Below are positions 266-21,305 of a stretch of 35,265 bases of DNA, in pieces; within the stretch, counting starts at the first letter, position 1; each line of letters opens with the position of its first letter. The DNA lies in the NCBI GenBank assembly GCA_030704765.1, contig JAUYDD010000011.1, forward strand, positions 1 to 35,265, given 5' to 3'. The translations under genes and the position numbers were made by a program. The DNA comes from Nanobdellota archaeon. Its GTDB lineage: Archaea; Nanobdellota; Nanobdellia; Pacearchaeales; GW2011-AR1. The notes below the pieces were generated by a model, which was not told the origin of the DNA, ran no database searches, and was given only the letters and a program-made list of their open reading frames with translations.

Positions 266-1162
266 TTAGAATCTCAACTTATCTTTTTTTAGAATGTTAA
301 TTAAGGAGCTAATAAAAGGCTTTAAGTCTTCCTGATATTGTGCTTTTTGAAGAACTTCATAATATTTGAATCTTCTTCTTTTTGGAATATTTATCATAGG
401 ATATTTATTTTTATGCAATATAAAATTTATTAATAATCTTCCAACTCTTCCATTTCCATCAACAAAAGGATGAATTTTTTCAAATTCAGTATGAAAGTAT
501 GAGGCTAAAACAATAGGATTCAATTTACTTTTATTTGTTGAACACCATTTTAACAAATGAGCCATTTTATTAGGTACCTCTGATGCGTTTGGAGGAACAC
601 TCCCACCTACAAATACTTGAACATTCCTGTATTTTCCTATTTGAGAAACTAAATCTTCTCTTAAGGTATTAAACACAACCAATCTATGCAGTTCTAATAT
701 AAATTCCTTGGTTAATTCTCTATTATAATTCAGCATGTAATCAAATGCTTTTTTATGATTTATGGTCTCATTAATCTCTCTTAAAGATTTTTCTTTAGGA
801 ACAATTCCTTCAAATAATAAAAAGGATGTTTCAGATAAAGTCAAAGTATTTCCTTCTATACCTGTTGAATCATAAGTAAAAAGTGAACAAAATGCTTCAT
901 ATCTATTTTCAAAATTTTCTTTTGGTTCTTTAGAAAAATCTTTTTTTATTTCTTCTAAAAACTTTATTTCTTCAACAGAAAGCATTGCCTCAAAAATTTT
1001 TAATTTTTTATCTGCATCTTTTTCCTTTTTTTTAAGTTCTTCTTTGTTTAGATTAACTCCTAAGTAAATTCTTTCTTTTCTTACTTTTTCCCCTTTTCTA
1101 ATTACCCTTACCCTGTAAAAATACTCTCTTCCTTTTTTTTCCTGAATTTCAGTATGTACCAT
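266..1162 (-). CDS. Fic/DOC-family protein (probable AMPylase-type Fic domain)
   Basis: 298-aa ORF with the canonical Fic motif HPFVDGNGRVGRLL (HxFx[DE]GNGRxxR). ATG start with a TATA-like box about 27 nt upstream. Confidence 0.85.
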   Translation of the reverse strand: MVHTEIQEKKGREYFYRVRVIRKGEKVRKERIYLGVNLNKEELKKKEKDADKKLKIFEAMLSVEEIKFLEEIKKDFSKEPKENFENRYEAFCSLFTYDSTGIEGNTLTLSETSFLLFEGIVPKEKSLREINETINHKKAFDYMLNYNRELTKEFILELHRLVVFNTLREDLVSQIGKYRNVQVFVGGSVPPNASEVPNKMAHLLKWCSTNKSKLNPIVLASYFHTEFEKIHPFVDGNGRVGRLLINFILHKNKYPMINIPKRRRFKYYEVLQKAQYQEDLKPFISSLINILKKDKLRF

Positions 1163-1170
1163 GAGCTTAT

Positions 1171-1212
1171 TATGACTACATGGTTTATATATTTTTCTAT
1201 CATGTAGTCATA
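1171..1212. promoter_or_regulatory. 12-bp perfect inverted repeat bracketing the TATA-like box of the Fic gene (putative operator)
   Basis: TATGACTACATG (1171-1182) and CATGTAGTCATA (1201-1212) flank an 18-nt spacer, GTTTATATATTTTTCTAT, located 9-50 nt upstream of the Fic ATG (1162, minus strand). Confidence 0.5.
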
Positions 1213-1268
1213 AAGAATTGTAGAAACAAATAGTTTTTATTCGCTTATGTGAAGCGGCGTTCTACCTT

Positions 1269-2453
1269 TCAAATATCAGAAGCGATTATAAATCCTTTTT
1301 TATCAACAAATTCTTTTGAAATTACATAAAATTCCCTTAATTTTAAACTATTTGCAATTCTTTTTAATTTTTTATAATCTTTTTCATCTCCCTTATTTTT
1401 AACTTCTAATGCTATGTTTTTTTCAGATAAAATAAAATCAATCTCTCCTCCGCTCCTTTTTTCATAGTATTTTATCTCTCCGTAATCCCTGAGGTTTGTA
1501 AAAATAGCATTTTCTAAAAGATTTCCCTCTTCGCATTTTCCAATATATCTTCCCATTCCATTATCACATATATAAATTTTTTTTGTCCCGCTTACTTCCC
1601 TATCTATACTTTTTGTTAATGGTGAGATTAGATTAATAAAATAAGTTTTCTCTAAAAAAGAGATATATGAGTAAATTGTTTCTCTTGAAACCCCAAGTTC
1701 GGATGATAATTTAGAGATGTCTAGTTTTGTTCCTATTCTTCTTAACAAAAGCAATAATAAATCTCTAAACTTATTTATTTCTTTAAAATCTGCTAAACCT
1801 TGTACGTCTTTTTCAAAATAAGATTTAAAAATATCTAGCAATAATTCTTTTTTCTTTTCAATGTTCTCTGCCAAAACAACCTGCGGAAATCCTCCAAACT
1901 CAAGGTATTCTTCATAAAGCTTTTTTGTTTTTTCGTATATTATTTTGTTTTTGTTTTTTTCTTTTTCCCTGAATTTTTCATAAAATTCCTTTTTATAATC
2001 TTTAAATAATAAAAATTCTTCAAAATCAAGTGGAAAAAGTTCAAAGATAATTTTTCTGCCAGATAGGCTTTCTGGAAATAAGTTCTTAAGATAAAAACTA
2101 CTTGAGCCTGTCAAAAAAAATTTCACATTATAATGGTCGTAGAGATATTTTACCACTTTAACAATATCCGGTTTTGCCTGAATTTCATCAAGGAAAATAA
2201 AAGCCTTGGTTTTATTGTCTATACCAAAAGATTTTAAATTTGCCCAGATATTATTATAGTCTTCTTCTTCGAAAATCTTTTGATTAAGAGGATTTTCCAT
2301 ATCGAAAAATCCTTTATTTTTAGTTTCTATTCTATCAAAAATCATACTAAAAAGAGTTGTTTTTCCAACTCTTCTCATTCCAGTTACAACTATAATCTCC
2401 TTATCCTTGATTCTTTGCATGAGTTTTTCAAAAAGCTTTCTCTTATATAACAT
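1269..2453 (-). CDS. AAA+ superfamily ATPase (AAA_14 + DUF4143-like architecture, from memory)
   Basis: 394-aa ORF with Walker A GMRRVGKTT and Walker B-like FIFLDEIQ. The C-terminal half resembles the wHTH/nuclease-like tail of archaeal DUF4143 ATPases. Not verified by search. Confidence 0.7.
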   Translation of the reverse strand: MLYKRKLFEKLMQRIKDKEIIVVTGMRRVGKTTLFSMIFDRIETKNKGFFDMENPLNQKIFEEEDYNNIWANLKSFGIDNKTKAFIFLDEIQAKPDIVKVVKYLYDHYNVKFFLTGSSSFYLKNLFPESLSGRKIIFELFPLDFEEFLLFKDYKKEFYEKFREKEKNKNKIIYEKTKKLYEEYLEFGGFPQVVLAENIEKKKELLLDIFKSYFEKDVQGLADFKEINKFRDLLLLLLRRIGTKLDISKLSSELGVSRETIYSYISFLEKTYFINLISPLTKSIDREVSGTKKIYICDNGMGRYIGKCEEGNLLENAIFTNLRDYGEIKYYEKRSGGEIDFILSEKNIALEVKNKGDEKDYKKLKRIANSLKLREFYVISKEFVDKKGFIIASDI

Positions 2454-2681
2454 TTTATACCTTACATATTTATATTAATTATGTAAGCTAATACCTTACA
2501 CTTTTTAAATGTTAGTATATATTTTATAAAAAGATATACTAGGAAAAGATGATTATTCATCAAAGACAGCAAATACTCCCTTGAGAAAATATAGTGGATG
2601 TTCAGGCCAAGGTTGCAGAGGGAAATATTAGGGAAATTAATTGATTGTTCTTTGGATATATTTATTATAGAAAAAGGGCAT

Positions 2682-2699
2682 GATTCCGGGCAGGAGGCG
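2682..2699 (+). repeat. Third, degenerate copy of the tRNA-Ser 3' end / att core, located upstream of the tRNA
   Basis: GATTCCGGGCAG (2682-2693) is identical to tRNA positions 4289-4300. It is followed by GAGGCGG, versus CGGCGT in the tRNA. This is a GC-rich 12-mer in a very AT-rich window. Confidence 0.6.
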
Positions 2700-2783
2700 G
2701 ATTTTTTATTTTCCTAAGAAAGGTGACCAAGAAGGTTCTCCATCAAAAGAAGCAAAATGATTTGTCAAGTTTTTTTGCTCACT

Positions 2784-4100
2784 TCAATCAGCATTCATGA
2801 AATAAATTTCATTATTAATATATCTCCAATTATTCCCTCTACTTGAAGAAAAGGCTATTTTCCTGCCATCAGGTGACCAAGAAGGTTTTTCCTCAAGAAA
2901 TGGAGTGTTTGTCAGTCTTTTTTGCTCACTTCCATCAGAGTTCATTACATAAATTTCATCATTTCCATCCCTATTTGATGTAAAAGCTATTTTCTTGCCA
3001 TCAGGTGACCATGAAGAAGATGAATCATGAGCTGGATTGTTTGTCAATCTCCTAGGTTCACTTCCATCTGAGTTCATGACATAAATTTCATAATTTCCGT
3101 CTCTATGTGATGTAAAAACTATTTTCTTCCCATCAGGTGACCAAGAATGAAATGCATCCCAAGCAGGATTATTTGTCAAGTTTTTCTGTTCAGTTCCATC
3201 AGAGTTCATGACATAAATTTCATGTTCACTATCTTTATATGACATAAAAGCTATTTTCTTCCCATCAGGAGAGCAAGAAGGAAGTTTATCTTCAACAGGA
3301 TTATTTGTCAATCTTTTCTGTTCAGTTCCATCAGAGTTCATGACATAAATTTCATAATTTCCATCTCTATGTGATGTGAAAACTATTTTCTTGCCATCAG
3401 GTGACCAAGAAGGAGATCCATCAAAAGCAGAGTTTTTTGTCAATCTTTTCTGATCACTTCCATTTGGATTCATAACATAAATTTCAAGATTTCTATCTCT
3501 ACCTGACATAAAAACTATTTTCTTGCCATCAGGTGACCAAGAAGTAGATACATCCCAATCAGGATTGTATGTCAATCTCTCCTGCACACTTCCATCAGCA
3601 TTCATAACATAAGCTTCATAATGTCCATCTCTTTTTGATTCAAAAGCTATTTTCTTGCCATCAGGTGACCAAGAAGGATATCCATTATAAGGAGGATTTT
3701 TTGTCAATCTTTTCAACATACTTCCATCCGAATTCATAACATAAATTTCATCAATTCCATCTCTATTTGAATCAAAAGCTATTTTCTTGCCATCAGGTGA
3801 CTAAGAAGGATGTCCATTATATATCGTTGGAAAATAAACAGGATTTTTTGTCAATCTTTTTTGCTCACTTCCATCAGCATTCATGAAATAAATTTCATCA
3901 ATTCTATCTATATTTGAATCAAAAGCTATTTTGGATTGTTTATATGATTTCTCTACCAAAAATGTAGATTCTCTTGATAAAGGTTCTTTTGCTACTTGTT
4001 GTGAATAAGTATTATAACCTGAAGCAACAGTTACTGCAAGCATTGCTGCTAAACCAAAATTTCTTAATCCTCTAACTAATTTTTCAAGACATCTTACCAT
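2784..4100 (-). pseudogene. PD40/TolB-like beta-propeller repeat protein with an N-terminal membrane anchor, interrupted by an in-frame TAG
   Basis: ORFs 3801-4100 and 2784-3737 are in the same frame. There are at least eight ~44-aa repeats (SWSPDGKKIAF..S.RDGN.EIYVMN.DGS..) with a 131-nt DNA period. The TAG at 3801-3803 sits exactly where the other repeats have the Trp codon (PSWSPDGKK becomes PS*SPDGKK). The N-terminus contains the hydrophobic stretch FGLAAMLAVTVASG. Confidence 0.7.
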
Positions 4101-4223
4101 TGATTGTCAATTATTCTATATTTTAAATATTTATTTGTGTTTTAGTGATATTATTCTTTCAACAATAATACTTAATATCATTTAAATATTAAGATGAAAC
4201 ACTGTTAAGTTGAAAAATCATCT

Positions 4224-4305
4224 GCCGCTGTGTGGGACAATGGTACTCCAACCGCTTTGAGAGCGGTGCCTTAACGGCCTCCCGGTTCGATTCCGGGCAG
4301 CGGCG
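4224..4305 (+). tRNA. tRNA-Ser: tRNA-Ser (anticodon UGA), class II with a long variable arm, no encoded CCA
   Basis: Acceptor stem GCCGCTG / CAGCGGC with discriminator G. Anticodon stem ACCGC/GCGGT with loop TTTGAGA (anticodon TGA). Variable arm GCC-TTAAC-GGC. T arm CCCGG-TTCGATT-CCGGG. Total length 82 nt. Confidence 0.9.
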
Positions 4306-4306
4306 T
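4294..4306 (+). repeat. attL core (overlaps the tRNA-Ser 3' end)
   Basis: CGGGCAGCGGCGT is identical to 34995-35007. Confidence 0.8.
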
Positions 4307-4369
4307 CCTAATAAAGTTCTATGCCGTTTTCGAGGGCGGTTTTAATAGCAGAAAAAAACGCTATTAAAC

Positions 4370-5566
4370 ATGGAACAGAAAATAGACATACATAATTATA
4401 AGGGTAGATTTGATAGTACAGTTAAAAGAATAAATGGATCTTTAGATATTTCTGATCAGGATAAACTAGCTATTAATAGGCTTAAGGATTATTGTATTTG
4501 CCAAGGTATCACCTATGGAAAGATTGATGCTTATCTTTTCTATGCTTCAAGGCTTGCTAGAATGCTCCATAAACCAATCGAACAAGCCACAAAAGAAGAT
4601 CTTATGAAAGTTGTAGCAGAACTTAATCAATCACATTATAGTGAGGAAACAAAAGTTTGTTTTAAAATTATGATCAGAAAGTTTTACAAAATGCTTAAGG
4701 GCATTGAAGAAAAAGGAAAATACCCTCCTGAGGTTGATTGGATAAATACTACAATTTCTAAAAATCATGAAAAACTGCCTGAAGAACTTTTAACAGAGGA
4801 AGAGGTTGAAAAAATAATTAGGTCTGCTCGAACTGTAAGAGATAAAGCGCTTCTTGCAGTTATTGCAGAATCTGGTTGTAGGGTTTCTGAAATAGGAACA
4901 ATGAAAATCAGACAAATCACATTTGAACAACACGGAGCTAGATTAACTGTTTCAGGAAAAACTGGAACTAGAAAAATTCTTGTTATTAGCACTACTCCTT
5001 ATTTAAGAGAGTGGCTAAACCAACATCCTTTAAATGACAATTCTGATGCTTATTTATGGTATAATTCTGGGAAAAATTCTTTTTTATCCTATGCAAGAAT
5101 AGCCCATATATTAAAAGCTGCAGCTAGTAAGGCTGGAATAAAAAAAAGAGTCTATCTTCATTTACTAAGACATACAAGAGCAACAAGAATGGCTAATATG
5201 ATGAGCGAAGCAGCAATGAAACAATATTTTGGATGGACTCAGAGTTCAAAGATGGCAAGTATTTATGTTCATATGTCTGGAAAAGATACTGATGATGCAA
5301 TATTAAAAGCAAATGGAATTGAAATTAAAAAAGAAGAATTCAAACAATGTTTAAAACCTCTTAATTGTGAAGGTTGCAAAACAATAAATGAGGCTACAAA
5401 CAGATTCTGCAAAGTATGTGGACTTCCATTAGTAAAAGAGGAAGCTCAAGAGATAATAAAAACAGATACAGAAAGAAAACAATATGATGAAATGATGATG
5501 AAAGCCTTAGCTGATCCAAGAATATTGGAGATTATTAAAGAGAAAATGAAAGGGATACAAAATTAA
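4370..5566 (+). CDS. Tyrosine recombinase / integrase with a C-terminal zinc ribbon
   Basis: 398 aa. Box I Arg in AESGCRVSEI, the HLLRHTRAT (HxxR) motif, and the catalytic Tyr in ASIYVHM. The C-terminus has CEGC...CKVC. The gene lies directly next to the tRNA/attL. Confidence 0.85.
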   Translation: MEQKIDIHNYKGRFDSTVKRINGSLDISDQDKLAINRLKDYCICQGITYGKIDAYLFYASRLARMLHKPIEQATKEDLMKVVAELNQSHYSEETKVCFKIMIRKFYKMLKGIEEKGKYPPEVDWINTTISKNHEKLPEELLTEEEVEKIIRSARTVRDKALLAVIAESGCRVSEIGTMKIRQITFEQHGARLTVSGKTGTRKILVISTTPYLREWLNQHPLNDNSDAYLWYNSGKNSFLSYARIAHILKAAASKAGIKKRVYLHLLRHTRATRMANMMSEAAMKQYFGWTQSSKMASIYVHMSGKDTDDAILKANGIEIKKEEFKQCLKPLNCEGCKTINEATNRFCKVCGLPLVKEEAQEIIKTDTERKQYDEMMMKALADPRILEIIKEKMKGIQN

Positions 5567-6111: not shown

Positions 6112-6381
6112 CTAATTCTCTTTATCTTCATATAAAAACATGAGTATAGGCAATACTTCTTTATTCATCTTCATCCTCTTTAATGTCTTTTCAAGTTCTT
6201 CGGATGACCGATGATAAATCATCTGATATGAAAAAGATGAGCGTTTTTCTTTTAATTTTGTAAATTCATTAAGAATTTCATTTTTCAATCTTATTGTATT
6301 CCAAGCCCTATTATTTTCATTATAACAGATTTTTCCATCTATATTAATTATTGTCTTAGGGATTAGAGGTTTTCTTTCCAT
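6112..6381 (-). CDS. Hypothetical protein (89 aa)
   Basis: ORF only, with no recognisable motif. It is divergent from the TrmB-led operon. Confidence 0.4.
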   Translation of the reverse strand: MERKPLIPKTIINIDGKICYNENNRAWNTIRLKNEILNEFTKLKEKRSSFSYQMIYHRSSEELEKTLKRMKMNKEVLPILMFLYEDKEN

Positions 6382-6540
6382 GTTCAGAGTATCACCCCTA
6401 ATAGCTATGATTTAAAATATATGAAATAATATAGTATATAAGTTAATAGCACTACTTCAGTAGTTCTATCCAAAGGTTTAAAAATACCATTTTTCTGCTT
6501 AGATTATCCCTGCGGGAAAATGAGTTCTGTGATAATTTAA

Positions 6541-7251
6541 ATGGAAAACGAAGCAAAATTACTAGGGCTAAATAGCTATGAATTCAGGGCATATCAAGCC
6601 TTGATTAGGTTAGGGAAAGCCACAGCACAAAAGATAAGCAAACTAAGTAGTGTTCCATCCAGTAGAATATATGATATATTATCTTCTCTTGAATCAAAGG
6701 GATATATTAAAACAATAAATGATAGGGTAAAGTATTTTATTGCCTCTGATCCTAAAGAAGTCATAAAATTTATTCAAAACAAAAAGAAAGAACTAGATAA
6801 TCTTGAGGTTGAATTTGGAAGGCTTGAACAGATTTATGATATTCAGGAAGAAGAACCTATACTCATTGTAAAAGGAAACAGAAATTTTCATAGACTTCTA
6901 AAGGAAAAACCAGAAGCTAAAAAATATAGATATACAATAAAATATAATTCTGTTGTAAATCCTGAATGGGTAAAAGGATATAAAAATAAATTAAAGAAAA
7001 AAGTTGATATTAAAAATCTAGTAAGATTTGATGAAAAAACCAGGAAAAATGTATTAAAATGGAAAGATGTTCTTCCTGAAATAAAGGCAATTGAAAATGA
7101 AGGAGTTTTGATGTCTTTAATTGATGATCATTATGTTATGATTGGATTAATTACTTCTAATTGTACCGTGGTAATAAAAAATGAAGCTTTTTGTAAGATC
7201 CTAAAAAAAATGTATCTTGCAACATATGAGAAAGCTGAGGTAATAAAATAA
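6541..7251 (+). CDS. TrmB-family transcriptional regulator
   Basis: N-terminus LGLNSYEFRAYQALIRLGKATAQKISKLSSVPSSRIYDILSSLESKGYI is a typical TrmB wHTH. It is the first gene of a 5-gene coupled operon. Confidence 0.75.
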   Translation: MENEAKLLGLNSYEFRAYQALIRLGKATAQKISKLSSVPSSRIYDILSSLESKGYIKTINDRVKYFIASDPKEVIKFIQNKKKELDNLEVEFGRLEQIYDIQEEEPILIVKGNRNFHRLLKEKPEAKKYRYTIKYNSVVNPEWVKGYKNKLKKKVDIKNLVRFDEKTRKNVLKWKDVLPEIKAIENEGVLMSLIDDHYVMIGLITSNCTVVIKNEAFCKILKKMYLATYEKAEVIK

Positions 7252-7252
7252 A

Positions 7253-8428
7253 ATGCAAACACAAAAATTTAAACTAAAACAACTGAATCAAAATATTTCT
7301 TGGAGTAAATTAAATGCAGTTTCAAAGGTTTATTTATTAGGAATTTATAGAGATATTTTAGCAAATGAGCAAATAAAAAAATGTCAGCTATTAAATGATA
7401 GAGATGTTTATTTTAAAGATTCAAATATGACTCTCCAAGGAACTTCTATCTCAGGGCTAAGTTCCCCATCTATTTTAGATAAACCTATTATTTTTGATAA
7501 AAATAATTCAGTTGAACAAAATTTAGATGATTTTACTACAATTTTAGCAGAGTGTTATTTAAAAAATATGAAAGAAGATCTAAAAGTTTTCAAAAAAGCT
7601 TTTCCAGATGATCTCGAGCAGTTTAGAAAAATAGGCACTTACTGGGTCGGTCATATAAGTGCTAAAATGTTAGGCTTAATTTTTAAACTTGATATTGATA
7701 TGGATAAAATAGACCCAAAAATATATGGAATTAATGTTCCATTTTATCAATTAATGAATAACTCTAAATATAATAAATTGAAAAAACAATATTTAGAAAA
7801 AACTGATAATCATTCAATTAAATTAATAACCAAAAAAAGTTTTATTTTATCAGATTCAACCGGAGCAAGAGGAATTGTAAATGATGTTAATTCAAAAGAA
7901 ATGAATAGAATAAGAATCCTGGTTCCTTCAAATATCAATAACATACTTTTGTTTATTTCTAAATTAACTGTTAAGAAAATTAATCTTTTAAAGAGTAAAT
8001 ATAAAGAAACTGAAAAATTAAATCTGAGATCATTGGCTTTAATCTGTAGTGATACAGATTCTCCTGATGGAATTTATAGAGAACTTGGATGGCACCCAAT
8101 TGAAGGTTATCCTTTAACTCCTGGTTGCTTTATTCTAGGGTCAACTGGTTCACTAGATTTATATTGTTTGCAAGCAAAATATATCTATAGATTATCTCTA
8201 GCTGCACAAGAAGAAATGAAAAATAGTATAACAAGCAACATAAAAGGAAAATATACTCCGGTAGTCTGGTTTGGAGCATTAAGCCTTCATGCCTTAACAG
8301 AACATAAAATAGTTGATACTAAAAAATTATCTGAATTAAGATATGATGGAGACTTTGATCCTAAAAAAGAATTCTTACACTGGTTAAATAAAGAAGGAAA
8401 AGAATATCTTAGAGGAGGATTAAAATGA
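7253..8428 (+). CDS. Hypothetical protein (391 aa), no recognisable motif
   Basis: Starts 1 nt after the TrmB stop. Its TGA overlaps the ATG of the next gene (ATGA). I could not find a KxDG ligase motif or a nucleotidyltransferase motif. Confidence 0.6.
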   Translation: MQTQKFKLKQLNQNISWSKLNAVSKVYLLGIYRDILANEQIKKCQLLNDRDVYFKDSNMTLQGTSISGLSSPSILDKPIIFDKNNSVEQNLDDFTTILAECYLKNMKEDLKVFKKAFPDDLEQFRKIGTYWVGHISAKMLGLIFKLDIDMDKIDPKIYGINVPFYQLMNNSKYNKLKKQYLEKTDNHSIKLITKKSFILSDSTGARGIVNDVNSKEMNRIRILVPSNINNILLFISKLTVKKINLLKSKYKETEKLNLRSLALICSDTDSPDGIYRELGWHPIEGYPLTPGCFILGSTGSLDLYCLQAKYIYRLSLAAQEEMKNSITSNIKGKYTPVVWFGALSLHALTEHKIVDTKKLSELRYDGDFDPKKEFLHWLNKEGKEYLRGGLK

Positions 8429-9009
8429 GTAGACAGGAATATTGGAATTGTAACACTGCATGCACTAAACGATTTTCAGAAACCTTTCCAAGAAGTATAT
8501 TACCAAGAATATCTTTAGGTATGATTTTAGATTTAGGATGTTCATCAGGACAAACTACCCAACATATCGCAGATATTTATCCAGATTCAGCTGTAATTGG
8601 AATTGATATTAATTATAAAAAAATAAAAGAAGCAAGAGAAATAAATACAAATCCAAACATAGAATTTTTATTAGCTGATGGATACCAAATGCCTTTCTCA
8701 AATTTAACATTTGATGCGGCTTTTTGCATGAATAATTTAAATCAAGCTATAGGGTGTGAAATGATTTCAAAAGAAAGAATCGTTGAAATAGCTAATGAAA
8801 TTGCAAGAGTAATAAAACCAAGAGGCTACCTAATGTTCTCAGGACAAGATAAATCAATTATGCAAAAGATGCATTCTGGTTTTGAAATGAGATATTATTA
8901 CTTTGATAGTAGTCCTCAACCTTCTCAAACTTTATTTGAGGCATTAAATAATAAAACAAGAAGAAGATTAAGAAAGAAATCTTTTAAAGCCGAGGTGGTT
9001 TTAAAATGA
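8425..9009 (+). CDS. Class I SAM-dependent methyltransferase
   Basis: Motif I ILDLGCSSGQ, the acidic loop VIGIDIN, the ADGYQMPF motif, and IKPRGYLMFSG. Confidence 0.8.
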   Translation: MSRQEYWNCNTACTKRFSETFPRSILPRISLGMILDLGCSSGQTTQHIADIYPDSAVIGIDINYKKIKEAREINTNPNIEFLLADGYQMPFSNLTFDAAFCMNNLNQAIGCEMISKERIVEIANEIARVIKPRGYLMFSGQDKSIMQKMHSGFEMRYYYFDSSPQPSQTLFEALNNKTRRRLRKKSFKAEVVLK

Positions 9010-9839
9010 AAATTTTAGTAATAGGCGATTTACATGGAGAATTTCCTGAAAATGTTAAAGAGGTAATAAACAAAGAAAAAATAGATTTAATTCTATCTAC
9101 AGGAGATTTTGCTAATTTCGATAATTATAGAAAAATAAAGTTTGAAAAAATGGATAAGACAAAATTCTCCAATAAAGTAAAAGATAGTGTAAATAATGAA
9201 GATTACAATAAGATGATTAATGAAATTATTAAATCAATGGAAAAACCTCTAGATGCTTTGGATTCTTTTAATATTCCAGTTTATACAATCTATGGAAATC
9301 TCGACTATACAAATTATGAAGTAAACAAACATAAAATAAGGACAAACAGCTTAAACAGAATTGTTAAGAAATCTAAGAATATTAAATTATTTCGGGAGGG
9401 GTATGTTGACCTAGGTAGTCTTCAGATTTTATTATTTTCTGGGTATAGAAAGAATGCTCTAAAGTATGCTCCTAAGAAAACTAAAAAAGTTGATAGATTA
9501 AATAAAGGGTGGAGAGACAGGCTGAATAAAATATTTTCACAAATAAAACCAGATAAACCTGTTTTATTCTTATTCCACGATCCTCCAAAAGATACTAAAT
9601 TAGATTTAATCAATAATCCAACCAGTCCAATGAATGGTAAGCATGTTGGAGATGAGATCAATAGAGAATTTATAGAAAAATATCAGCCTCAAATTGCTGT
9701 TTGTGGACACATGCATGAAACACAAGGAACTGACAAAATCGGAAAATCTCTAATAATCAATGCAGGTTATGGCAGAGCAGGTCAATTCTTAATTTTAGAT
9801 ATAAATGGAAATGATGTTAAATATGATTTGAGGAAATAA
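9006..9839 (+). CDS. Calcineurin-like metallophosphoesterase
   Basis: Motifs in order: VIGDLHGE (DxH), TGDF (GD), YGNLD (GNxD), FHDPP (H), CGHMHE (GHxH). Confidence 0.85.
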   Translation: MKILVIGDLHGEFPENVKEVINKEKIDLILSTGDFANFDNYRKIKFEKMDKTKFSNKVKDSVNNEDYNKMINEIIKSMEKPLDALDSFNIPVYTIYGNLDYTNYEVNKHKIRTNSLNRIVKKSKNIKLFREGYVDLGSLQILLFSGYRKNALKYAPKKTKKVDRLNKGWRDRLNKIFSQIKPDKPVLFLFHDPPKDTKLDLINNPTSPMNGKHVGDEINREFIEKYQPQIAVCGHMHETQGTDKIGKSLIINAGYGRAGQFLILDINGNDVKYDLRK

Positions 9840-9840
9840 A

Positions 9841-10374
9841 ATGGTAAAAACAAATTTAGTTTTATTAACAGGACTTCCAGCAGGAGGAAAAAGCACAGTT
9901 GCACAAAGATTAGTTAGTGAATATGGTTTTGCAGTTTTATCTACAGATGATTTAAGACAATCGTTATTTCAACAAACTTATGAGGAACTAGCAAAAGATG
10001 GAAAAAGAAAAGATGAAGTGATAAGAAAAATTATTGATTATTCAAAATTTCAAATTTTAAGTGCAGGTTGCGATCTAGTTATTGACTCCACTGCACCAAC
10101 TGAAAAATTTAGAAGAAGAATGCTAGAATTACCTGAATATCTTGAACAGGCAGTTAAAAAATCCGTTTTATATCTAAGGAGTGAAGAACAAACAAGACAT
10201 TCAAGACACATGGCTCGTGGTGGTTCAGAGGTTTCTTTAAAGACTATTCAAGGGTTTTGGAAGGAGCCACAAGATGGATTTTGCGGGGCAAGTTTGTATT
10301 CAATTGAGAATAATGGAAATCAAGATCAATTGTTTAAAGAAGTTGCTAAGTTTTATGAGTGGTTGAAAAGATAG
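9841..10374 (+). CDS. P-loop kinase resembling the polynucleotide 5'-kinase domain (T4 Pnk / Pnkp type)
   Basis: Walker A GLPAGGKST. LSTDDLRQS resembles T4 Pnk INRDDYRQS, which carries the general-base Asp and an Arg. VIDSTAPT resembles ISDTNL, and there is an Arg-rich lid, RHSRHMARGG. The comparison is with the T4 and Clostridium Pnkp sequences as I remember them. Confidence 0.65.
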   Translation: MVKTNLVLLTGLPAGGKSTVAQRLVSEYGFAVLSTDDLRQSLFQQTYEELAKDGKRKDEVIRKIIDYSKFQILSAGCDLVIDSTAPTEKFRRRMLELPEYLEQAVKKSVLYLRSEEQTRHSRHMARGGSEVSLKTIQGFWKEPQDGFCGASLYSIENNGNQDQLFKEVAKFYEWLKR

Positions 10375-10403: not shown

Positions 10404-10928
10404 TTAGTCATATTGGTGTATTATCTCCATAATTTTGTCAATACTAATTGGTTTATATCTAGTTTGTTCTGTACTTACATTTATTCTCTTATTTTCCCTA
10501 TCAACAAAAATCCCCTTATTATGTGTATGACCAAATATTGCCCAACTTTTCCAATCATTAGGAATTTCATAAGGTCTATGGACAAGATAAAAACTTTCAC
10601 CTTTATATTTTAATATAAAATGATGTCTTCCTTTGATATATTTGTCGTGATTTCCTTTTATGAATATTTTTTTACCATTAAGGGCATTAATAAGTTTACC
10701 AACTCTGCTTCTATTTTTTCTACAAAAACAAAAATCTCCTAAAAAATATACAATATCATTTTTTCCAACAGTTTTATTCCAATTACTAATAAGCACTCTG
10801 TTCATTGTTTGTACATTTTTAAAAGGTCGGTTACAATATTTGATAATATTTGTATGATCTAAATGCAAATCAGAAGTTAAAAATATTTTAGACTCTGTCC
10901 CGAATAATCTTTTTAGGAAATTAAACAT
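10404..10928 (-). CDS. Small metallophosphoesterase (second copy of the fold, different subfamily)
   Basis: Motifs LTSDLHLDH, FLGDF, KGNHD, VHRP, FGHTH. Confidence 0.8.
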   Translation of the reverse strand: MFNFLKRLFGTESKIFLTSDLHLDHTNIIKYCNRPFKNVQTMNRVLISNWNKTVGKNDIVYFLGDFCFCRKNRSRVGKLINALNGKKIFIKGNHDKYIKGRHHFILKYKGESFYLVHRPYEIPNDWKSWAIFGHTHNKGIFVDRENKRINVSTEQTRYKPISIDKIMEIIHQYD

Positions 10929-10944: not shown

Positions 10945-11682
10945 TCATTTAGTTTTTTCTTTAGAATATTCTTTTTCTGTATCTTCTACTTCTTTCTTTA
11001 GCTGTTGAATTGTCTTTTCAAATTCATCTATTCTATAATACAACGTATGGATATTTACTTTCATTCTTTCTTTTTCACTTGCTAATTTATAAAACATGCT
11101 CCTTAGATACCTCATATTGTTTAGTTTCTCTGTTCCTTCTTTCAATTGCTTTCTGAACACATTTATTTTATCTTCAGATTCCATTATAACTCTTGGGAAA
11201 TATTCTAATTCTCTAAGCACAATAGAAACTTGTTCATTATATTTTTTCTTAGTGTTTTTTATACCTTCTTCAATTTCACTAATTCTATCTAAAATTCTCT
11301 TAAAACTTGATTTTGTAGCATATTCAGGATATTTATCCAAATAATCTCGCATAGCAATATTAACATCATCCACATCCTTATTCTTAATTTTAATAGTTGT
11401 TGCTTTTTTTCCTTTCTGTGATGTTTGCATCATTTCTTTTTCAAAATTAGTTTCTTTATTCAATAAATTTCCTAGAGATTCATATAACTTGACTTTTTCT
11501 TCTTCGTCAGCAACCATATTATCCTTAAACTTTTTTGCATCTGCCTTTGCATATTTTAGTTTATGGTTCATCTCATATAGATGCTTGACATTACTCTTAA
11601 CTTTCTCGTGAGCGTAATCTAATGCCTTTTGATATTCATCCTTTATAGCAATTGCATCTTGTTTTCCAGTTACATCTACCAT
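10945..11682 (-). CDS. Coiled-coil protein of unknown function (245 aa)
   Basis: Lys/Glu-rich heptad-like sequence throughout. Its ATG lies 1 nt after the stop of the small upstream ORF (11684-11851). Confidence 0.55.
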   Translation of the reverse strand: MVDVTGKQDAIAIKDEYQKALDYAHEKVKSNVKHLYEMNHKLKYAKADAKKFKDNMVADEEEKVKLYESLGNLLNKETNFEKEMMQTSQKGKKATTIKIKNKDVDDVNIAMRDYLDKYPEYATKSSFKRILDRISEIEEGIKNTKKKYNEQVSIVLRELEYFPRVIMESEDKINVFRKQLKEGTEKLNNMRYLRSMFYKLASEKERMKVNIHTLYYRIDEFEKTIQQLKKEVEDTEKEYSKEKTK

Positions 11683-11952: not shown

Positions 11953-12462
11953 ATGAAAATATCAATAATTCAAGGAGACATAACAAAAGTAAAAGCAGAT
12001 GCAATTGTAAATGCTGCTCATCATACACTTATGGGTGGTGGAGGTGTTGATGGGGCAATTCATAAAAATGCAGGAAGTGAGTTAATTGAAGAATGTATCA
12101 AGTTAAGAAATGAAGAATTTCCACATGGACTTAATACAGGAGAAGCAGTCGCAACTAAATCTTATGGAATAAATCAAGCAAAGATATTAATCCATACTGT
12201 TGGACCTAGATATTATTCAGATGACTTAAATAAACTAAAAGATTGTTATATTAATTCATTAAAAATTGCAGAAGAAAATGATTGCAAATCCATAGCTTTT
12301 CCTGCAATTGCAACAGGTGCTTATGGTACTCCAATAGAAAAATCAGCTGAAATTGTTAAAGAGGTTTTAAGTAATTACAATTCTAAAATAATTGAGGAAG
12401 TTATTTTAGTTCTTTTTACTGAAGAAGATAAAGAGGTTTATAATAAAATATTTACCATATAA
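11953..12462 (+). CDS. Macro-domain protein (MacroD/YmdB-like ADP-ribose hydrolase)
   Basis: Motifs IIQGDITKVKADAIVNAA, GGGGVDGAIH, ILIHTVGP, SIAFPAIATGAYG. Confidence 0.9.
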   Translation: MKISIIQGDITKVKADAIVNAAHHTLMGGGGVDGAIHKNAGSELIEECIKLRNEEFPHGLNTGEAVATKSYGINQAKILIHTVGPRYYSDDLNKLKDCYINSLKIAEENDCKSIAFPAIATGAYGTPIEKSAEIVKEVLSNYNSKIIEEVILVLFTEEDKEVYNKIFTI

Positions 12463-12736: not shown

Positions 12737-13282
12737 TTAATTCTTTTTCTCTCTTTCTATTATTTGATAATTTATTTTATCAATAACTTGTAGATATTCA
12801 TCTAATCTTTGTAGTTCAAAATTTTTATACTCTTTTTTGTTCAAGATGTATCCTTTTCTATAATCTCTAAAATCAAATTTTATTCTTTTTACTAGGCCAT
12901 TTAGATCTTCTTCTTGGAATTCTACAAGTTTCAAATGTTGTAAGAATCTTAGGACAATTTCTAAACTAATTTTTTTGCTAAAATAATGTTTATAGTCTTT
13001 CCAATCAAAATAGATATGATGAAATATAGAATACAATAAAGTTACAATTAGGGAAAATATCATTATCTGAATATAATTGCCAAACTGAGGGAAAATAAGC
13101 ATCCATTCAAGAGACAGAAAAACTTGGACTAATGCTGCTACCAATACTATAAACCCTGAAAACATTAAAATAGATGTATTAAATGTAAATCTTCTTCCCT
13201 CAACATTTTTAGAATACTCTTGATTAAGTAATTCTAATTCTGTTTTAAAATACTCTATAATATTATCTAATTTTTTTAACAT
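12737..13282 (-). CDS. Membrane protein (181 aa), unknown function
   Basis: Has a central pair of TM segments. Begins 1 nt after the stop of the upstream 74-aa ORF. Confidence 0.5.
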   Translation of the reverse strand: MLKKLDNIIEYFKTELELLNQEYSKNVEGRRFTFNTSILMFSGFIVLVAALVQVFLSLEWMLIFPQFGNYIQIMIFSLIVTLLYSIFHHIYFDWKDYKHYFSKKISLEIVLRFLQHLKLVEFQEEDLNGLVKRIKFDFRDYRKGYILNKKEYKNFELQRLDEYLQVIDKINYQIIEREKKN

Positions 13283-15259: not shown

Positions 15260-17602
15260 ATGGCTTTAAATAAGAAACAAATGTCTGAAACTGAAATATG
15301 TACTAATTTTATTACTCCTGCACTTGAAAAGTCAAGTTGGACTAAAAAGCAAGTAAGAATGAATGTATATTTTACTGATGGAAGAATAATAGTTGCAGGA
15401 AAAACTGTAAAAAGAGGAAGAAGAAACTTTGCAGATTATATTTTAGAATATAAGCCCAATGTTCCTTTAGCAGTAATAGAGGCAAAAGATAACAACTATT
15501 CTATGGGCGATGGCATGCAACAGGGTTTGGGATATGCAGAAAAACTGGATTTGCCTTTTGTTTTTAGTTCTAATGGCGATGGGTTTGTTTTTCATGACAG
15601 GGAAACAGGAAAAGAAACAAATTTGTCTTTAGATAATTTCCCCTCTCCAAAAGAATTATGGGAGAAATATAAAAAATATAAAGGAATTACAGAAAAGATT
15701 GAAGATACGGTGACATCTGATTATTTTTACGAGCCAGGATTCAAACAACCAAGATATTATCAAAGAATTGCAATTAATAGAACAATCGAAGCTGTTGCAA
15801 AAGGCATTAAAAGAGCGCTTCTTGTTATGGCGACAGGAACAGGAAAAACCTATGTAGCTTTTCAAACTATCTGGAGATTAAGAGAAGCAGGACTTGCAAA
15901 AAGAGTTTTATATCTGGCTGATAGAAATATTTTAATTGACCAACCAAAGAATAATGATCTAAAACCTTTATCTAAGGTTATAACTAAAATATCCAAAAGG
16001 AAAGCAGATCCAGCTTATGAAGTTTATCTTGCATTATATCAGGCTGTCTCAGGAGAAGAAGATATTAAAAATATCTATAAACAATTCTCTCCAGAGTTTT
16101 TTGATTTAATAATCGTTGATGAATGTCATAGGGGAAGTGCAAAAGCAGACTCTCAATGGAGAGAAATTTTAGATTACTTTAAACCAGCAGTTCAAGTTGG
16201 TATGACTGCAACTCCTAAAGAAACTAAAGATACTTCAAATATAGATTATTTTGGAAAACCTCTTTATACTTATTCATTAAGAGAAGGAATCGAAGATGGT
16301 TTTCTTGCACCCTATAAGGTTGTAAAAGTTGCAATAGATAAAGATGTTCATGGATACAGACCAAAGAAAGGAGAAACAGATAAATTTGGACATGAGATAC
16401 CTGACTTTGTTTATACAAATCGAGAGTTTGATAAAACTTTAGTCATTGATGAAAGAACAGAAGTCGTGGCTAAAAAGATTACAGAGTTCCTAAAGAATAC
16501 TGATAGATTTTCTAAAACAATTGTTTTCTGTGTAGATATTGAACATGCAGAAAGAATGAGACAAGCATTAGTGAATGAAAATTCAGATTTATACAAAGAA
16601 AATTCAAAATATATTATGAGAATTACTGGAGATAACAATATTGGTAAAAAACAGTTAGGTAATTTTATTGATCCTGCTGAAAAATATCCAGTAATTGTAA
16701 CAACTTCTAAACTGATGAACACTGGAGTTGATGCACAAACATGTAAATTGATAGTTTTAGATTCACCTATCCAATCAATGACAGAATTTAAACAAATTAT
16801 TGGAAGAGGAACAAGAATTAAAGAAGATTATGGTAAACACTATTTCACAATTATGGATTTTAGAAATGTTACAAATAAGTTTGCTGATCCTGATTTTGAC
16901 GGAGAGCCTGTTCAAATCTACACTATAAAAGATAATCAAGAAGTCAAAGAACAAGAAACAAAAGATCAAAAATTAGAAGATGGAGAAAGGATTCTCGTTT
17001 CTCCAAGTATTGCTTATTCTGAGGAAGAAGAGAAGGTAAGAAAGTTTTATGTCAGGGGTACAGAAGTTAATGTCATAAATGAAAGAGTTCAATACCATGA
17101 TCCTCAAGGAAAACTTATAACAGAATCATTGACAGACTATACTAAAAAAAATGTTAACAAAGAATTTAGAAGTTTAAATGAATTTATCCAAAAATGGAAT
17201 ATAGTTGATCAAAAGAAAGTTATTATTGAAGAGCTTGAAAATCAAGGGCTTTTAATTGATGCTTTAAGGGAAGAAATTCCTAATGGAAAAGAATTTGATC
17301 CTTTTGATTTAATTGCTCATATTGCTTATGGGCAAAAACCTTTAACAAGAAGTCAAAGAGCATTAAAGGTTCAGAAAGACGCTTACTTCAATAAATATGG
17401 AGAAAAAGCAAGAAAAGTTATTGAAGTTCTCCTAACAAAGTATGAAGATGAAGGTATAGAAGAAATGGAGAACTCAGAAATCTTAAAAGTCTCTCCTATT
17501 AACAAATTAGGAAGACCATTAGAAATAATGAAACTCTTTGGGGGAGTTGTTGGTTATAAGAAGATGATTAAAGAGATTGAAGCGAGATTATATAAAAGTT
17601 AA
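15260..17602 (+). CDS. hsdR: Type I restriction enzyme R subunit (EcoAI/EcoEI-like, COG4096-type)
   Basis: N-terminal nuclease motif ADYIL...VIEAKD. Helicase motifs MATGTGKT, DECHRG and MTATP. The C-terminus FDPFDLIAHIAYGQKPLTRSQRA resembles the EcoEI R C-terminal domain. Confidence 0.9.
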   Translation: MALNKKQMSETEICTNFITPALEKSSWTKKQVRMNVYFTDGRIIVAGKTVKRGRRNFADYILEYKPNVPLAVIEAKDNNYSMGDGMQQGLGYAEKLDLPFVFSSNGDGFVFHDRETGKETNLSLDNFPSPKELWEKYKKYKGITEKIEDTVTSDYFYEPGFKQPRYYQRIAINRTIEAVAKGIKRALLVMATGTGKTYVAFQTIWRLREAGLAKRVLYLADRNILIDQPKNNDLKPLSKVITKISKRKADPAYEVYLALYQAVSGEEDIKNIYKQFSPEFFDLIIVDECHRGSAKADSQWREILDYFKPAVQVGMTATPKETKDTSNIDYFGKPLYTYSLREGIEDGFLAPYKVVKVAIDKDVHGYRPKKGETDKFGHEIPDFVYTNREFDKTLVIDERTEVVAKKITEFLKNTDRFSKTIVFCVDIEHAERMRQALVNENSDLYKENSKYIMRITGDNNIGKKQLGNFIDPAEKYPVIVTTSKLMNTGVDAQTCKLIVLDSPIQSMTEFKQIIGRGTRIKEDYGKHYFTIMDFRNVTNKFADPDFDGEPVQIYTIKDNQEVKEQETKDQKLEDGERILVSPSIAYSEEEEKVRKFYVRGTEVNVINERVQYHDPQGKLITESLTDYTKKNVNKEFRSLNEFIQKWNIVDQKKVIIEELENQGLLIDALREEIPNGKEFDPFDLIAHIAYGQKPLTRSQRALKVQKDAYFNKYGEKARKVIEVLLTKYEDEGIEEMENSEILKVSPINKLGRPLEIMKLFGGVVGYKKMIKEIEARLYKS

Positions 17603-17611
17603 ATTGCGATT

Positions 17612-18415
17612 TTATTCTAATTTTCTTGGATTTGCCATCCCATTATACATTCTAGTATCTATGCCCTCTAAAATTGTTTCAATCTCCTGAGAGCTTAAAG
17701 CATGATATTGGGCTTTGAATTTCTGATTTACACAATCTTCTATTGTTTTATGATTTTCTATATCAAAAACAAAATTAAATAATTCAATCGGTTCTTGAGG
17801 TTCATCCAAATAATTTTTAAATACAATAGAACAATCTATTCCAAAAAACCTCTTATTATTCTTTTTCATTATTTCAATTAATTGATCAAATGTTAGAGAT
17901 CTGCCATTAGTTCCTAAGATGAATTTGCCTTCTTCATAATAAAAAAAATTAAATTTAGGTTTGAATTCTAGTGAAATTATTTCTTTGGATCTAAGTACTA
18001 TCCTATTCTTATCAGTATTCCAATTAACAAATCCATTATCAATTATTTTTTTCTTTTTTCCATCAAAATCATCTATTAATTGGGAAGGATCAAAACTAAA
18101 TGAAATAAAATCTTGTTTGCCATGTTTTTCAACATGAGGAACCGCAAGAGTAAATCTAGTTTCAAGACCTATTTGAAAAATTGATTGCTCACCAATATTT
18201 TCTAAGTCCAATTTTATATGATTTTTCTCAACTTTATATCTAATTAACTTCAAAAGTAGTGGTTTATCATGTTTTAGTCTTCTAGTTTGTTCTTTCAATA
18301 GTTTTAATTGCTCTTTACTCTGCCTTACAGTTTTATAGGTGACTCCTGCAAGAATTAATGTTCCAATTGCAGTTGCAATTTGTGATCCTATTAAAAGATT
18401 ATTTTCTAGAGTCAT
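17612..18415 (-). CDS. Hypothetical protein (267 aa) with an N-terminal TM anchor, last gene of the hsdM operon
   Basis: N-terminal helix IGSQIATAIGTLILAGVTY. ATGA start/stop overlap with the upstream gene. No recognisable catalytic motif. Confidence 0.55.
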   Translation of the reverse strand: MTLENNLLIGSQIATAIGTLILAGVTYKTVRQSKEQLKLLKEQTRRLKHDKPLLLKLIRYKVEKNHIKLDLENIGEQSIFQIGLETRFTLAVPHVEKHGKQDFISFSFDPSQLIDDFDGKKKKIIDNGFVNWNTDKNRIVLRSKEIISLEFKPKFNFFYYEEGKFILGTNGRSLTFDQLIEIMKKNNKRFFGIDCSIVFKNYLDEPQEPIELFNFVFDIENHKTIEDCVNQKFKAQYHALSSQEIETILEGIDTRMYNGMANPRKLE

Positions 18416-18981
18416 TTTAATAAGCTAAAAAACAATGGAACATATTTTAAAGCAATTCCTCCAACTTTTTTTATTAACTCTAGAGCATTTTCTCCACCTT
18501 CTTTTAAGGTATTAAATTTTTCAAGAATATCTAATAATTTCTTTTTTTTAGGTTCATCTAAATCTTCATCCTCTTCGATTAATTTTTTAAGAACATTAAT
18601 TTGGGAATTATCTATAATTTGGGATACCTGAGAATTGTCTCCAGTCTGGGCTACTTGAACTTGGGAACTATTTGTGACATTAGTTTGATTATGGATAGTT
18701 TGAGTAGCCTTTTCAGTCTCATCAAAATATTCTCTTTTACCTAAAACAACTTCCATACCCTTATGAGATAGTTTTATCTCGTCATCAGAAATATGATGTT
18801 CATTAATAAATAAGGCACTCTTCCAAAGGATATAATCCTTTTTTACTAAATATTTTAATAGTTCTCGCAAGGTTTCCCCTTTTATTAAGGAGTCTTTTTC
18901 TAACCCTTTAAAATCAATTTCTCTGATTTCATTTAAATTAGTTAATATGACTTTCCCATAATCTAAACTTTCTGCTTTCAT
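18412..18981 (-). CDS. Hypothetical protein (189 aa): YjcQ-like wHTH N-terminus, Gln/Asn/Ser-rich linker, C-terminal hydrophobic tail
   Basis: ATGA overlaps with hsdS upstream and with the 267-aa gene downstream. The N-terminal ~80 aa resemble small phage YjcQ-type wHTH proteins (from memory). The protein ends in IALKYVPLFFSLL. Confidence 0.5.
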   Translation of the reverse strand: MKAESLDYGKVILTNLNEIREIDFKGLEKDSLIKGETLRELLKYLVKKDYILWKSALFINEHHISDDEIKLSHKGMEVVLGKREYFDETEKATQTIHNQTNVTNSSQVQVAQTGDNSQVSQIIDNSQINVLKKLIEEDEDLDEPKKKKLLDILEKFNTLKEGGENALELIKKVGGIALKYVPLFFSLLK

Positions 18982-21303: not shown

Positions 21304-21305
21304 CT

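Follow-up and report, generated by a model that had tools for sequence, protein, structure and literature searches.

The stretch analyzed here (the window) is the entire 35,265-nt contig JAUYDD010000011.1 of a Nanobdellota archaeon (GenBank assembly GCA_030704765.1), and its subject is a tightly packed operon of five plus-strand open reading frames (ORFs) at positions 6541 to 10374, carried by an element integrated at a tRNA-Ser gene. The five genes, all verified at the positions given in an original prediction made from the letters of the contig alone, encode, in order, a TrmB-family regulator, a 391-aa protein (here called X), a class I S-adenosylmethionine (SAM) methyltransferase, a binuclear metallophosphoesterase, and a P-loop kinase (Table 1). 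The original prediction had taken them for the enzymes of the bacterial Pnkp/Hen1 RNA-repair system encoded as separate proteins, with X the candidate for the missing sealing function. Its calls of TrmB, SAM methyltransferase, metallophosphoesterase, and P-loop kinase domains are borne out by a Pfam scan, with which the NCBIfam, PHROGs, and PADLOC scans agree. Our reading of the whole differs: X is the founding member of a very rare, undescribed enzyme family, and apart from the kinase the operon has no homology to Pnkp/Hen1.

The genes are either separated by a single nucleotide (TrmB/X and phosphoesterase/kinase) or overlap by 4 nt at ATGA (X/methyltransferase and methyltransferase/phosphoesterase), the same spacing that had been claimed. 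Each of the five start codons lies in a TAAAATG(A) context, and a GAGG Shine-Dalgarno-like motif is found 8 to 12 nt upstream of the four genes 3′ of TrmB, making translational coupling credible. Five independent relatives (L001/L002, L005, L006, L007, and L008/L009) keep the entire operon as TrmB–X–phosphoesterase–kinase, and a sixth (L010), which begins inside X, shows X–phosphoesterase–kinase; X in these operons is 76 to 93% identical to X of the window, and in five of them it directly overlaps the start of the phosphoesterase gene. The order and coupling of X, phosphoesterase, and kinase are constant in 7/7 loci from DPANN archaea, despite 55 to 93% protein divergence and differing flanking cargo, and wherever a relative has both X and the kinase, the phosphoesterase is present too. 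Co-occurrence of the gene order, which had been put forward as a check, is therefore seen for TrmB, X, phosphoesterase, and kinase and is not seen for the methyltransferase, which is missing from all six relatives with an intact X–phosphoesterase junction. Four operon genes (TrmB, X, phosphoesterase, and kinase) and a divergent 89-aa ORF make up the conserved core.

Table 1. Features of the operon and of the element that carries it (positions in the window)
Feature	Position	Strand	Size or evidence
tRNA-Ser(TGA), integration target, attL side	4223-4308	+	ARAGORN
XerA-type tyrosine recombinase (integrase)	4370-5566	+	Phage_integrase 5.6e-24; recomb_XerA_Arch 1.4e-34
Divergent 89-aa ORF, conserved	6112-6381	-	Without family match
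Divergent intergenic region, presumed promoters/operator for the 89-aa ORF and the operon	6382-6540	.	Position only
Winged-helix regulator of the TrmB family, leading gene of the operon	6541-7251	+	236 aa; Pfam TrmB 6.7e-19
X, undescribed enzyme family, weakly CofE-like (F420:gamma-glutamyl ligase) predicted fold	7253-8428	+	391 aa
Class I SAM methyltransferase, strain-specific accessory cassette	8425-9009	+	194 aa; Methyltransf_25/11/31, Methyltransf_25 7.7e-18, Methyltransf_11 about 1e-17
Binuclear metallophosphoesterase, Metallophos_3/aq_1956 type	9006-9839	+	277 aa; Metallophos 6.2e-19, Metallophos_3 7.1e-19
P-loop kinase, polynucleotide kinase (T4 Pnkp/PSTK/KTI12) clade	9841-10374	+	177 aa; AAA_33 4.3e-14
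Putative attR, distal element end	34995-35007	+	Exact 13-nt repeat of tRNA-Ser 3′ end

Because it is missing from all six related operons, the methyltransferase is regarded as accessory: it is a cassette that this strain alone carries, inserted precisely at the X/phosphoesterase junction. The gene restores the GAGG...TAAAATGA junction at its 3′ end, and the protein forms a singleton cluster at 90% identity. Nor does its proposed identity as Hen1 survive, the protein being a generic, bare class I Rossmann core, with the Hen1 model outside its 25 best NCBIfam matches. The best NCBIfam names are of DVU1556, BioC, and UbiE types (metabolite methyltransferases), all far below cutoff, its PDB neighbors are PH0226 and RlmA, and its best PHROG is a “tRNA methyltransferase” (1.3e-8). 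The Hen1 component of the original prediction also falls on the gene order, there being no co-occurrence in related operons. In one relative, L008 (3296 to 7441; X 93% identical), every operon junction is occupied precisely by an extra ORF: the TrmB/X junction by one of 219 aa, the X/phosphoesterase junction by one of 215 aa, and the phosphoesterase/kinase junction by one for a 277-aa Sigma70_r4 protein. These insertions and the methyltransferase cassette of the window suggest that the TAAAATGA junctions are gene-insertion hot spots.

Insertions tolerated at every junction would also suit a reading in which the genes share no pathway and are independent cargo that happens to be cotranscribed, with TrmB and the 89-aa ORF forming a switch of the element and the enzymes unrelated in role; the occurrence of X elsewhere without a phosphoesterase or kinase points the same way. 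Such a reading has to contend with the order and coupling of X, phosphoesterase, and kinase being kept in every one of the seven DPANN loci, and we consider it very unlikely.

TrmB is the first gene in all relatives that retain the 5′ end of the operon. Its winged-helix domain scores 67.9 bits (Pfam cutoff, 25.6), and the full-length TrmB, TrmBL1, and TrmBL2 equivalog models of NCBIfam give about 1e-13 and 43 to 50 bits against cutoffs of 500 to 650; its 236 aa leave no room for a complete C-terminal sugar-binding domain like that of the sugar-sensing members. The divergent ORF upstream of TrmB (87 to 95 aa) is present in all six relatives that retain the upstream region, with 50 to 60% identity and 26 invariant columns, including a KEKRSxFSY motif. 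This ORF has no family match in Pfam, NCBIfam, or PHROGs and is a candidate for a small element regulator or an excision-control protein.

Judged by its sequence, the kinase belongs to the polynucleotide-kinase clade and is of the T4 Pnkp type. The T4 Pnk signature beyond the Walker A motif, as originally noted, is present (LSTDDLRQS), and D36, R39, D82, R122, and R126 are invariant in 16 family members, as are G11, K17, and S18 of the Walker A motif itself. The choice that had been left between Pnk and a nucleotide kinase goes to Pnk, with a whole-domain match to T4-type Pnkp and a P-loop-only match to adenylate kinase: hhalign aligns the kinase with the T4-type Pnkp of Bacillus phage pW2 over 128 columns (97.5%, E 7e-12, 30% identity), pairing D36/R39 (LSTDDLRQS), D82 (VIDST), the Walker A motif, and the Arg-lid positions, but aligns only 34 P-loop columns with the adenylate kinase of Escherichia coli. 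In Pfam, AAA_33 scores 53.5 bits (cutoff, 27) versus 23.5 bits for ADK, and the best PHROG is the polynucleotide kinase phrog_505 (3.9e-13). PDB matches of the single sequence are weak and ambiguous (adenylate kinases over the P-loop; T4 Pnk at 2.5e-3), and the 16-member profile retrieves UMP kinase, PSTK, AK1, and T4 Pnk at 1e-9 to 1e-7, followed by Pnkp1 (4xrp, 2.3e-5) and the kinase domain of CthPnkp (4jst, 2.6e-4). The bacterial Pnkp model TIGR04075 (bacter_Pnkp) matches weakly (6.7e-4, 17.9 bits against a cutoff of 750). Annotated phage matches of the kinase by tblastn are mostly “polynucleotide kinase,” several of them adjoining an RNA ligase; relatives in IMG/VR are about 300 aa long and mostly two-domain Pnkp proteins, some adjoining Rnl1.

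In the phosphoesterase, the binuclear-metal set is complete, and the motifs GDLHG, GDF, GNLD, FHDPP, and GHMHE do not vary among seven orthologues. The protein had been proposed as the calcineurin-type module of Pnkp. Its place in the binuclear metallophosphoesterase superfamily stands, but its subtype does not fit: it carries GNLD and groups with Metallophos_3 and Aquifex aq_1956 (PDB 2yvt, 1e-6), not with the lambda-phosphatase/GNHE type to which the phosphoesterase domain of Pnkp belongs (PMC2190708). It gives no match to the bacterial Pnkp model TIGR04075 of NCBIfam. The phosphoesterase could conceivably act as an end-healing enzyme.

X has no match in Pfam, NCBIfam, PHROGs, PADLOC, or the sequences of the PDB, whether searched as a single sequence or as sets of 11, 17, and 41 members, and no account of an X-like family or of this operon was found in the literature searched. 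The family is rare: 5.8 billion clustered proteins hold ten close relatives at 76 to 93% identity plus one at 31%, and a full HMMER scan of 1.84 billion (1.84e9) representative proteins yielded 21. Seventeen residues are invariant in 41 X sequences (E39, K42, G63, S65, K138, D201, N229, D267, D269, G291, G296, R313, S328, P336, R363, Y364, and E373), a carboxylate-rich set that looks enzyme-like and suggests an acidic, metal-type active site. All full-length members keep K42 and K138, neither of which stands in a KxDG context, and no nucleotidyltransferase or RtcB similarity or motif was seen among the family scans and the invariant residues.

The AlphaFold (AF2) model of X, built from a 27-sequence alignment, has a predicted local distance difference test score (pLDDT) of 82.4 and a predicted TM score (pTM) of 0.87; a first model from an 11-sequence alignment (pLDDT 53.6) gave meaningless Foldseek matches and was discarded. 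Foldseek returns no significant match to the model in the PDB and nothing in BFVD, and the top five PDB entries are all CofE (2g9i, 2phn, 7uld). For sequence comparison, Af-CofE was taken from the target residues of a PDB search. In an hhalign comparison of the X family with Af-CofE, X 216 to 270 (RILVPSN–helix–LALICSDTDS) falls on CofE 110 to 150 (LLLPPLD–helix–VGVIITDTNG), such that the strand-helix-strand unit of X ending in DTD lies on ITDT of CofE (score, 21.0; P, 0.03 to 0.04; 4 of 300 shuffled CofE sequences reach that score). At a permissive threshold, the two are colinear over X 71 to 339 and CofE 3 to 214, with ISAK paired with VISKAEG, LGSTG with AIGISG, and TPVVW with IPAVV. One clade of X homologues, that of P0033, repeats the core alignment on its own (63 columns, E 0.029), and an intermediate clade matches the same segment. 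CofE was not found in PDB sequence-profile searches with X, and none of about 60 X-family loci has neighbors of the cofC, cofD, cofG, or cofH type. Weighing these results, we lean toward a genuine CofE-like scaffold in X, at somewhat better than even odds. CofE is a GTP- and Mn2+-dependent enzyme that converts a carboxylate, via an acyl phosphate, into an amide bond; its fold has been described as novel and its evolutionary origin as unclear (PMC8498797, PMC10861534). As for other folds, a TGT/DpdA-like TIM barrel was rejected (hhalign versus E. coli TGT, 0.17% probability, score 15.3), and the PEP-mutase/isocitrate-lyase, GT-A, Toprim, HAD, and family-B polymerase (“DTDS”) folds were motif ideas only, dropped once the model pointed to CofE.

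These properties bear on the proposed role of X in RNA repair. The proposal that the 391-aa protein is the sealing ligase retains a weakly CofE-type, amide-ligase fold in its favor and finds no nucleotidyltransferase or RtcB features. The wider scheme of a disaggregated Pnkp/Hen1 counter-defense, in which ribotoxin-cut RNA is healed, X seals, and the methyltransferase 2′-O-methylates the junction to immunize it, draws on the PNK-type kinase, on the equivalence of a kinase plus a binuclear phosphoesterase with the healing domains of bacterial Pnkp (PMC2190708), on the precedent of a split Pnkp1-Rnl-Hen1 (PMC4411300) and the match of the kinase profile to 4xrp, on the ligase-like, if weak, fold of X, and on the type I restriction-modification (R-M) loci with embedded extra genes that lie near the operon in the window and in two relatives (L001 and L006). 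Set against it are a methyltransferase that is neither conserved nor Hen1-like, an X without similarity to nucleotidyltransferases or RtcB whose sole structural neighbor makes amide and not phosphodiester bonds, the presence of the X family otherwise in biosynthetic clusters, and a phosphoesterase that is not of the lambda-phosphatase type. On this evidence, the scheme is quite unlikely. Comparably small is the chance that X represents a new class of NTP-dependent ligase derived from a CofE-like scaffold which, with the Pnk-type kinase and the phosphoesterase, forms a new RNA/tRNA repair-or-conjugation pathway on DPANN conjugative elements; X might then act on healed RNA ends by sealing them or by adding an amino acid, or might add the amino acid to a tRNA-linked moiety, with methyltransferases as optional “immunizing” add-ons.

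Elsewhere, X homologues keep different company. The homologue at 31% identity (P0011) lies directly 3′ of a SAM methyltransferase gene, and others are overlapped by a Methyltransf_24 gene (P0040), preceded by a formyltransferase, a methyltransferase, and an M20 peptidase (P0032), preceded by a TyrRS/TrpRS paralogue, a pyridoxal phosphate (PLP)-dependent decarboxylase, and an AstE/AspA deacylase (P0031), or followed by a B3/4-domain ORF (P0035), although the contexts of several of these clades rest on single short contigs. Scanning metagenomes with the P0033 clade gave 47 loci (L015 to L061; GC content, 0.27 to 0.63; contigs up to 800 kb), 40 of them with an approximately 607-aa B12-type radical SAM protein upstream of the X homologue and 30 with an approximately 261-aa SAM methyltransferase downstream. 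AMP-binding genes occur in 19 of these loci and acyl carrier protein (ACP) genes in 13; fewer contain radical SAM/SPASM proteins, AAC(3)-like and hexapeptide acetyltransferases, a DegT-like aminotransferase, DUF4910, NeuB, or a CMP-sugar cytidylyltransferase, and none has TrmB, the phosphoesterase, or the kinase. The radical SAM/X/methyltransferase triad looks like a tailoring cassette not yet described, set in glycan-type clusters of diverse taxa. Pairing of X with a nonorthologous SAM methyltransferase is seen in four lineages (the window, L003, L012, and about 30/39 of the P0033-clade loci), and the methyltransferase of the window has no match to the P0033-clade partner. From these gene neighborhoods, the usual habitat of the X family would be amino-acid, amide, or glycan tailoring.

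Such contexts are the basis for an interpretation in which the operon has no nucleic-acid substrate and is itself a cassette for tailoring a small molecule or glycan. X would be an amino-acid or amide ligase acting on a metabolite, nucleotide-sugar, or surface glycan; the kinase would put a phosphate on that compound and the phosphoesterase would take it off again, whether for activation, as self-protection, or to give a pro-form; the methyltransferase would cap the compound, and TrmB would sense it. All non-DPANN homologues of X lie in biosynthetic-looking clusters, among them the triad in about 40 loci of mixed GC content (many with AMP-binding/ACP genes and some with NeuB) and the clusters of P0031 and P0032; CofE itself is a small-molecule ligase (PMC8498797). 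The best names of the methyltransferase in the window are metabolite methyltransferases, and TrmB is a sugar-regulator family. The kinase, however, resembles T4-type Pnkp over the whole domain, down to the catalytic Asp and Arg, which contact the polynucleotide; viral relatives of the kinase adjoin RNA ligases, and no sugar or metabolite kinase family comes close in score. Further difficulties are that no phosphoesterase or kinase is found in any of the biosynthetic clusters, that the operon sits among defense and anti-defense cargo, and that DPANN archaea have little biosynthetic capacity. Taken by itself, this interpretation is doubtful, though far from negligible.

The reading that we favor, with a probability of roughly 0.35, is that the kinase and phosphoesterase remodel nucleic-acid or nucleotide-linked termini and that X conjugates rather than seals. 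The kinase would phosphorylate a 5′-OH-type hydroxyl and the phosphoesterase would remove a cyclic phosphate or monophosphate, the two together amounting to “end healing” of a nucleic-acid or nucleotide-linked molecule, with RNA or tRNA as the leading candidate. On its CofE-like scaffold, X would draw on NTP and a divalent metal (at D201/D267/D269) for the activation of an acid group, which it would then link to an amine, a step of conjugation or tailoring as opposed to classical 3′-OH/5′-P strand sealing. Where present, the methyltransferase would cap the product, and TrmB would autoregulate the operon. A substrate common to the three enzymes is inferred because their coupling is invariant across 55 to 93% divergence. 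Its nature as nucleic acid or nucleotide linked is suggested by the kinase, the element context, and the Pnkp-like pairing of domains; the contexts of X elsewhere and CofE chemistry suggest a metabolite or glycan, and the two kinds of substrate are almost equally likely.

Several observations weigh against our preferred reading. The Foldseek values for CofE are low (E 0.15 to 1.3, probability at most 0.54, and TM 0.30 to 0.47 normalized by target), the hhalign probability of the X-CofE alignment is 1 to 2%, and the Pfam family F420_ligase (PF01996) matches none of 41 X-family members, even at E values up to 10. The clade of the kinase includes enzymes that do not act on polynucleotides (PSTK, KTI12, and zeta toxin). 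Relatives of X are absent from the viral collections searched (phage genomes, BFVD, and IMG/VR), as are relatives of the phosphoesterase from the phage and IMG/VR collections, and X homologues outside DPANN archaea occur in small-molecule or glycan-type clusters, not RNA contexts, and without phosphoesterase or kinase. Finally, it is from invariable coupling and nothing else that X, the phosphoesterase, and the kinase are assigned a common substrate.

The mobile-element setting had been part of the original prediction and is confirmed by a tRNA-Ser gene, an integrase, a 13-nt repeat, a conjugation ATPase, and a pilin. The 3′ end of the tRNA-Ser gene, CGGGCAGCGGCGT (4294 to 4306), is repeated exactly at 34995 to 35007, with partial similarity continuing upstream, and the two copies are probably attL and attR. 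This repeat delimits an element of about 30.7 kb, integrated at tRNA-Ser and spanning nearly the whole contig, in a host that is a DPANN (Nanoarchaeota/Pacearchaeota) archaeon. The operon and the 89-aa ORF (6112 to 10374) form the integrase-proximal part of the element, and an integrase likewise lies upstream of the operon in L001 and L008. The element encodes a type IV secretion pilin and a VirB4/TraG-type P-loop ATPase that contains a PrgI domain; no relaxase was identified on it, and it is integrative and probably conjugative. Its further cargo includes DNA methyltransferases, a type I R-M system, and a PD-(D/E)XK nuclease.

Cargo of this kind invites another explanation, base hypermodification serving anti-restriction or tRNA immunization: the kinase would activate a hydroxyl on a modified base or nucleotide of DNA or tRNA, X would conjugate an amino acid or amine, the phosphoesterase would clear the phosphate, and the methyltransferase would tailor the product, protecting the element or host tRNAs from nucleases. 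Phage thymidine hypermodification offers an analogy, with a P-loop kinase and an amino-acid transferase. A PNK-type kinase, a ligase-like X, and an optional methyltransferase are here found on an element with type I R-M, DNA methyltransferases, and nucleases, and the neighbors of the X family include tailoring types (radical SAM, PLP decarboxylase, and methyltransferase) as well as a tRNA-related class I aminoacyl-tRNA synthetase paralogue and a B3/4 domain. The window nevertheless encodes no enzyme for a precursor base (dUMP hydroxymethylase or TET/JBP-type oxygenase), X has no similarity to the aGPT-Pplase or TGT/DpdA families, and X homologues lie in chromosomal clusters of the NeuB type, leaving this as the least probable of the explanations considered.

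Beyond the operon, several neighboring genes are worth recording. A second metallophosphoesterase (174 aa; 10404 to 10928, minus strand), convergent with the operon, matches the phage “phosphoesterase” phrog_547 (6.5e-50) and, weakly, PdeM, a ligase-associated DNA-damage endonuclease (1.9e-7), a link of the DNA-repair type (PMC7826289). At the same position in the relatives, no ORF is annotated as a phosphoesterase (a comparison of annotations only). Downstream of the operon, at a distance of 1.6 kb, lies the gene for a stand-alone macro-domain protein (11953 to 12462, plus strand; Pfam Macro, 3e-35). Domains of this kind take off ADP-ribose or ADP-ribose-1''-phosphate, and this protein could be tied to by-products of RNA repair or to the reversal of ADP-ribosylating toxins. 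Two candidate components of a defense island lie between the operon and the R-M locus: a LemA-like coiled-coil protein (10945 to 11682, minus strand; 7.5e-6) and a protein of 181 aa (12737 to 13282, minus strand) that weakly matches CTD10 of ABC-3C systems (4.7e-5). The type I R-M locus itself (15260 to 22751) has HsdR on the plus strand and HsdM-HsdS on the minus strand, with a DUF3644 plus EC042_2821 restriction-endonuclease-like gene (20305 to 21312) between hsdM and hsdS, a placement similar to that of the anticodon nuclease PrrC in the prr loci of E. coli. Two ORFs without a family match (17612 to 18981) also lie within this region, and the type I R-M loci of L001 and L006 have different genes embedded. 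At the distal end of the element, a 1,404-aa protein (30651 to 34865, plus strand) combines PA14, Big_13, and PGAP1-like alpha/beta-hydrolase domains; it is possibly an adhesin or lipase of the cell surface that serves cell-cell contact in an episymbiont. On the chromosomal side of the tRNA, outside the element, the minus strand (266 to 3737) encodes a Fic/DOC protein (266 to 1162), an AAA_14/DUF4143 ATPase (1269 to 2453), and a PD40 beta-propeller (2784 to 3737).

Whichever reading holds, a new enzyme family is defined by X, possibly a distant branch of CofE, an enzyme whose evolutionary origin has been called unclear (PMC8498797). Should nucleic-acid ends truly be healed by the kinase and phosphoesterase, end-healing modules would here be coupled to a third enzyme quite unlike known RNA ligases. 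What is new in this operon is the joining of a kinase/phosphoesterase pair of the end-healing type to a new enzyme family, with a minority chance of something categorically new. The operon is also a conserved, regulated cargo module of DPANN conjugative elements, an almost unstudied group, and it advises caution in annotation: the labels “kinase,” “calcineurin-like phosphoesterase,” and “methyltransferase” are, in combination, insufficient to infer Pnkp/Hen1.

Compared with known systems, the operon resembles bacterial Pnkp/Hen1 and Pnkp1-Rnl-Hen1 in bringing a P-loop PNK-type kinase together with a binuclear metallophosphoesterase; in CthPnkp, the same two activities are the healing domains (PMC2190708), and Pnkp1-Rnl-Hen1 is a precedent for separate polypeptides (PMC4411300). 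Of the original view of a Pnkp/Hen1 set distributed over separate genes, the kinase remains, and three of the four defining features fail: the phosphoesterase, on a gene of its own like the kinase, is of the Metallophos_3/aq_1956 (GNLD) type, an adenylyltransferase (KxDG) RNA ligase is missing (neither X nor any other ORF of the window matches an RNA or DNA ligase family), and the methyltransferase is neither Hen1 nor conserved. The operon differs further in its third conserved enzyme, X, which comes from an unrelated family, in its TrmB gene, and in its DPANN host. T4-type Pnkp plus Rnl1, as in Bacillus phage pW2 (pW2_48/49), has a related kinase domain and is likewise found on a mobile element, but there the kinase is fused to a HAD (DxDxT) phosphatase and paired with Rnl1, whereas in the window the phosphatase is a separate binuclear metallophosphoesterase and there is no Rnl-type ligase. 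[quoted passage not shown] The radical SAM–X homologue–methyltransferase triads differ from the operon in being chromosomal, in their B12-type radical SAM, AMP-ligase/ACP, NeuB, and cytidylyltransferase genes, and in lacking TrmB, phosphoesterase, and kinase, but their X homologues belong to the same family (about 22 to 28% identity to X, with the same invariant residues) and, as in the window, have a class I SAM methyltransferase immediately downstream.

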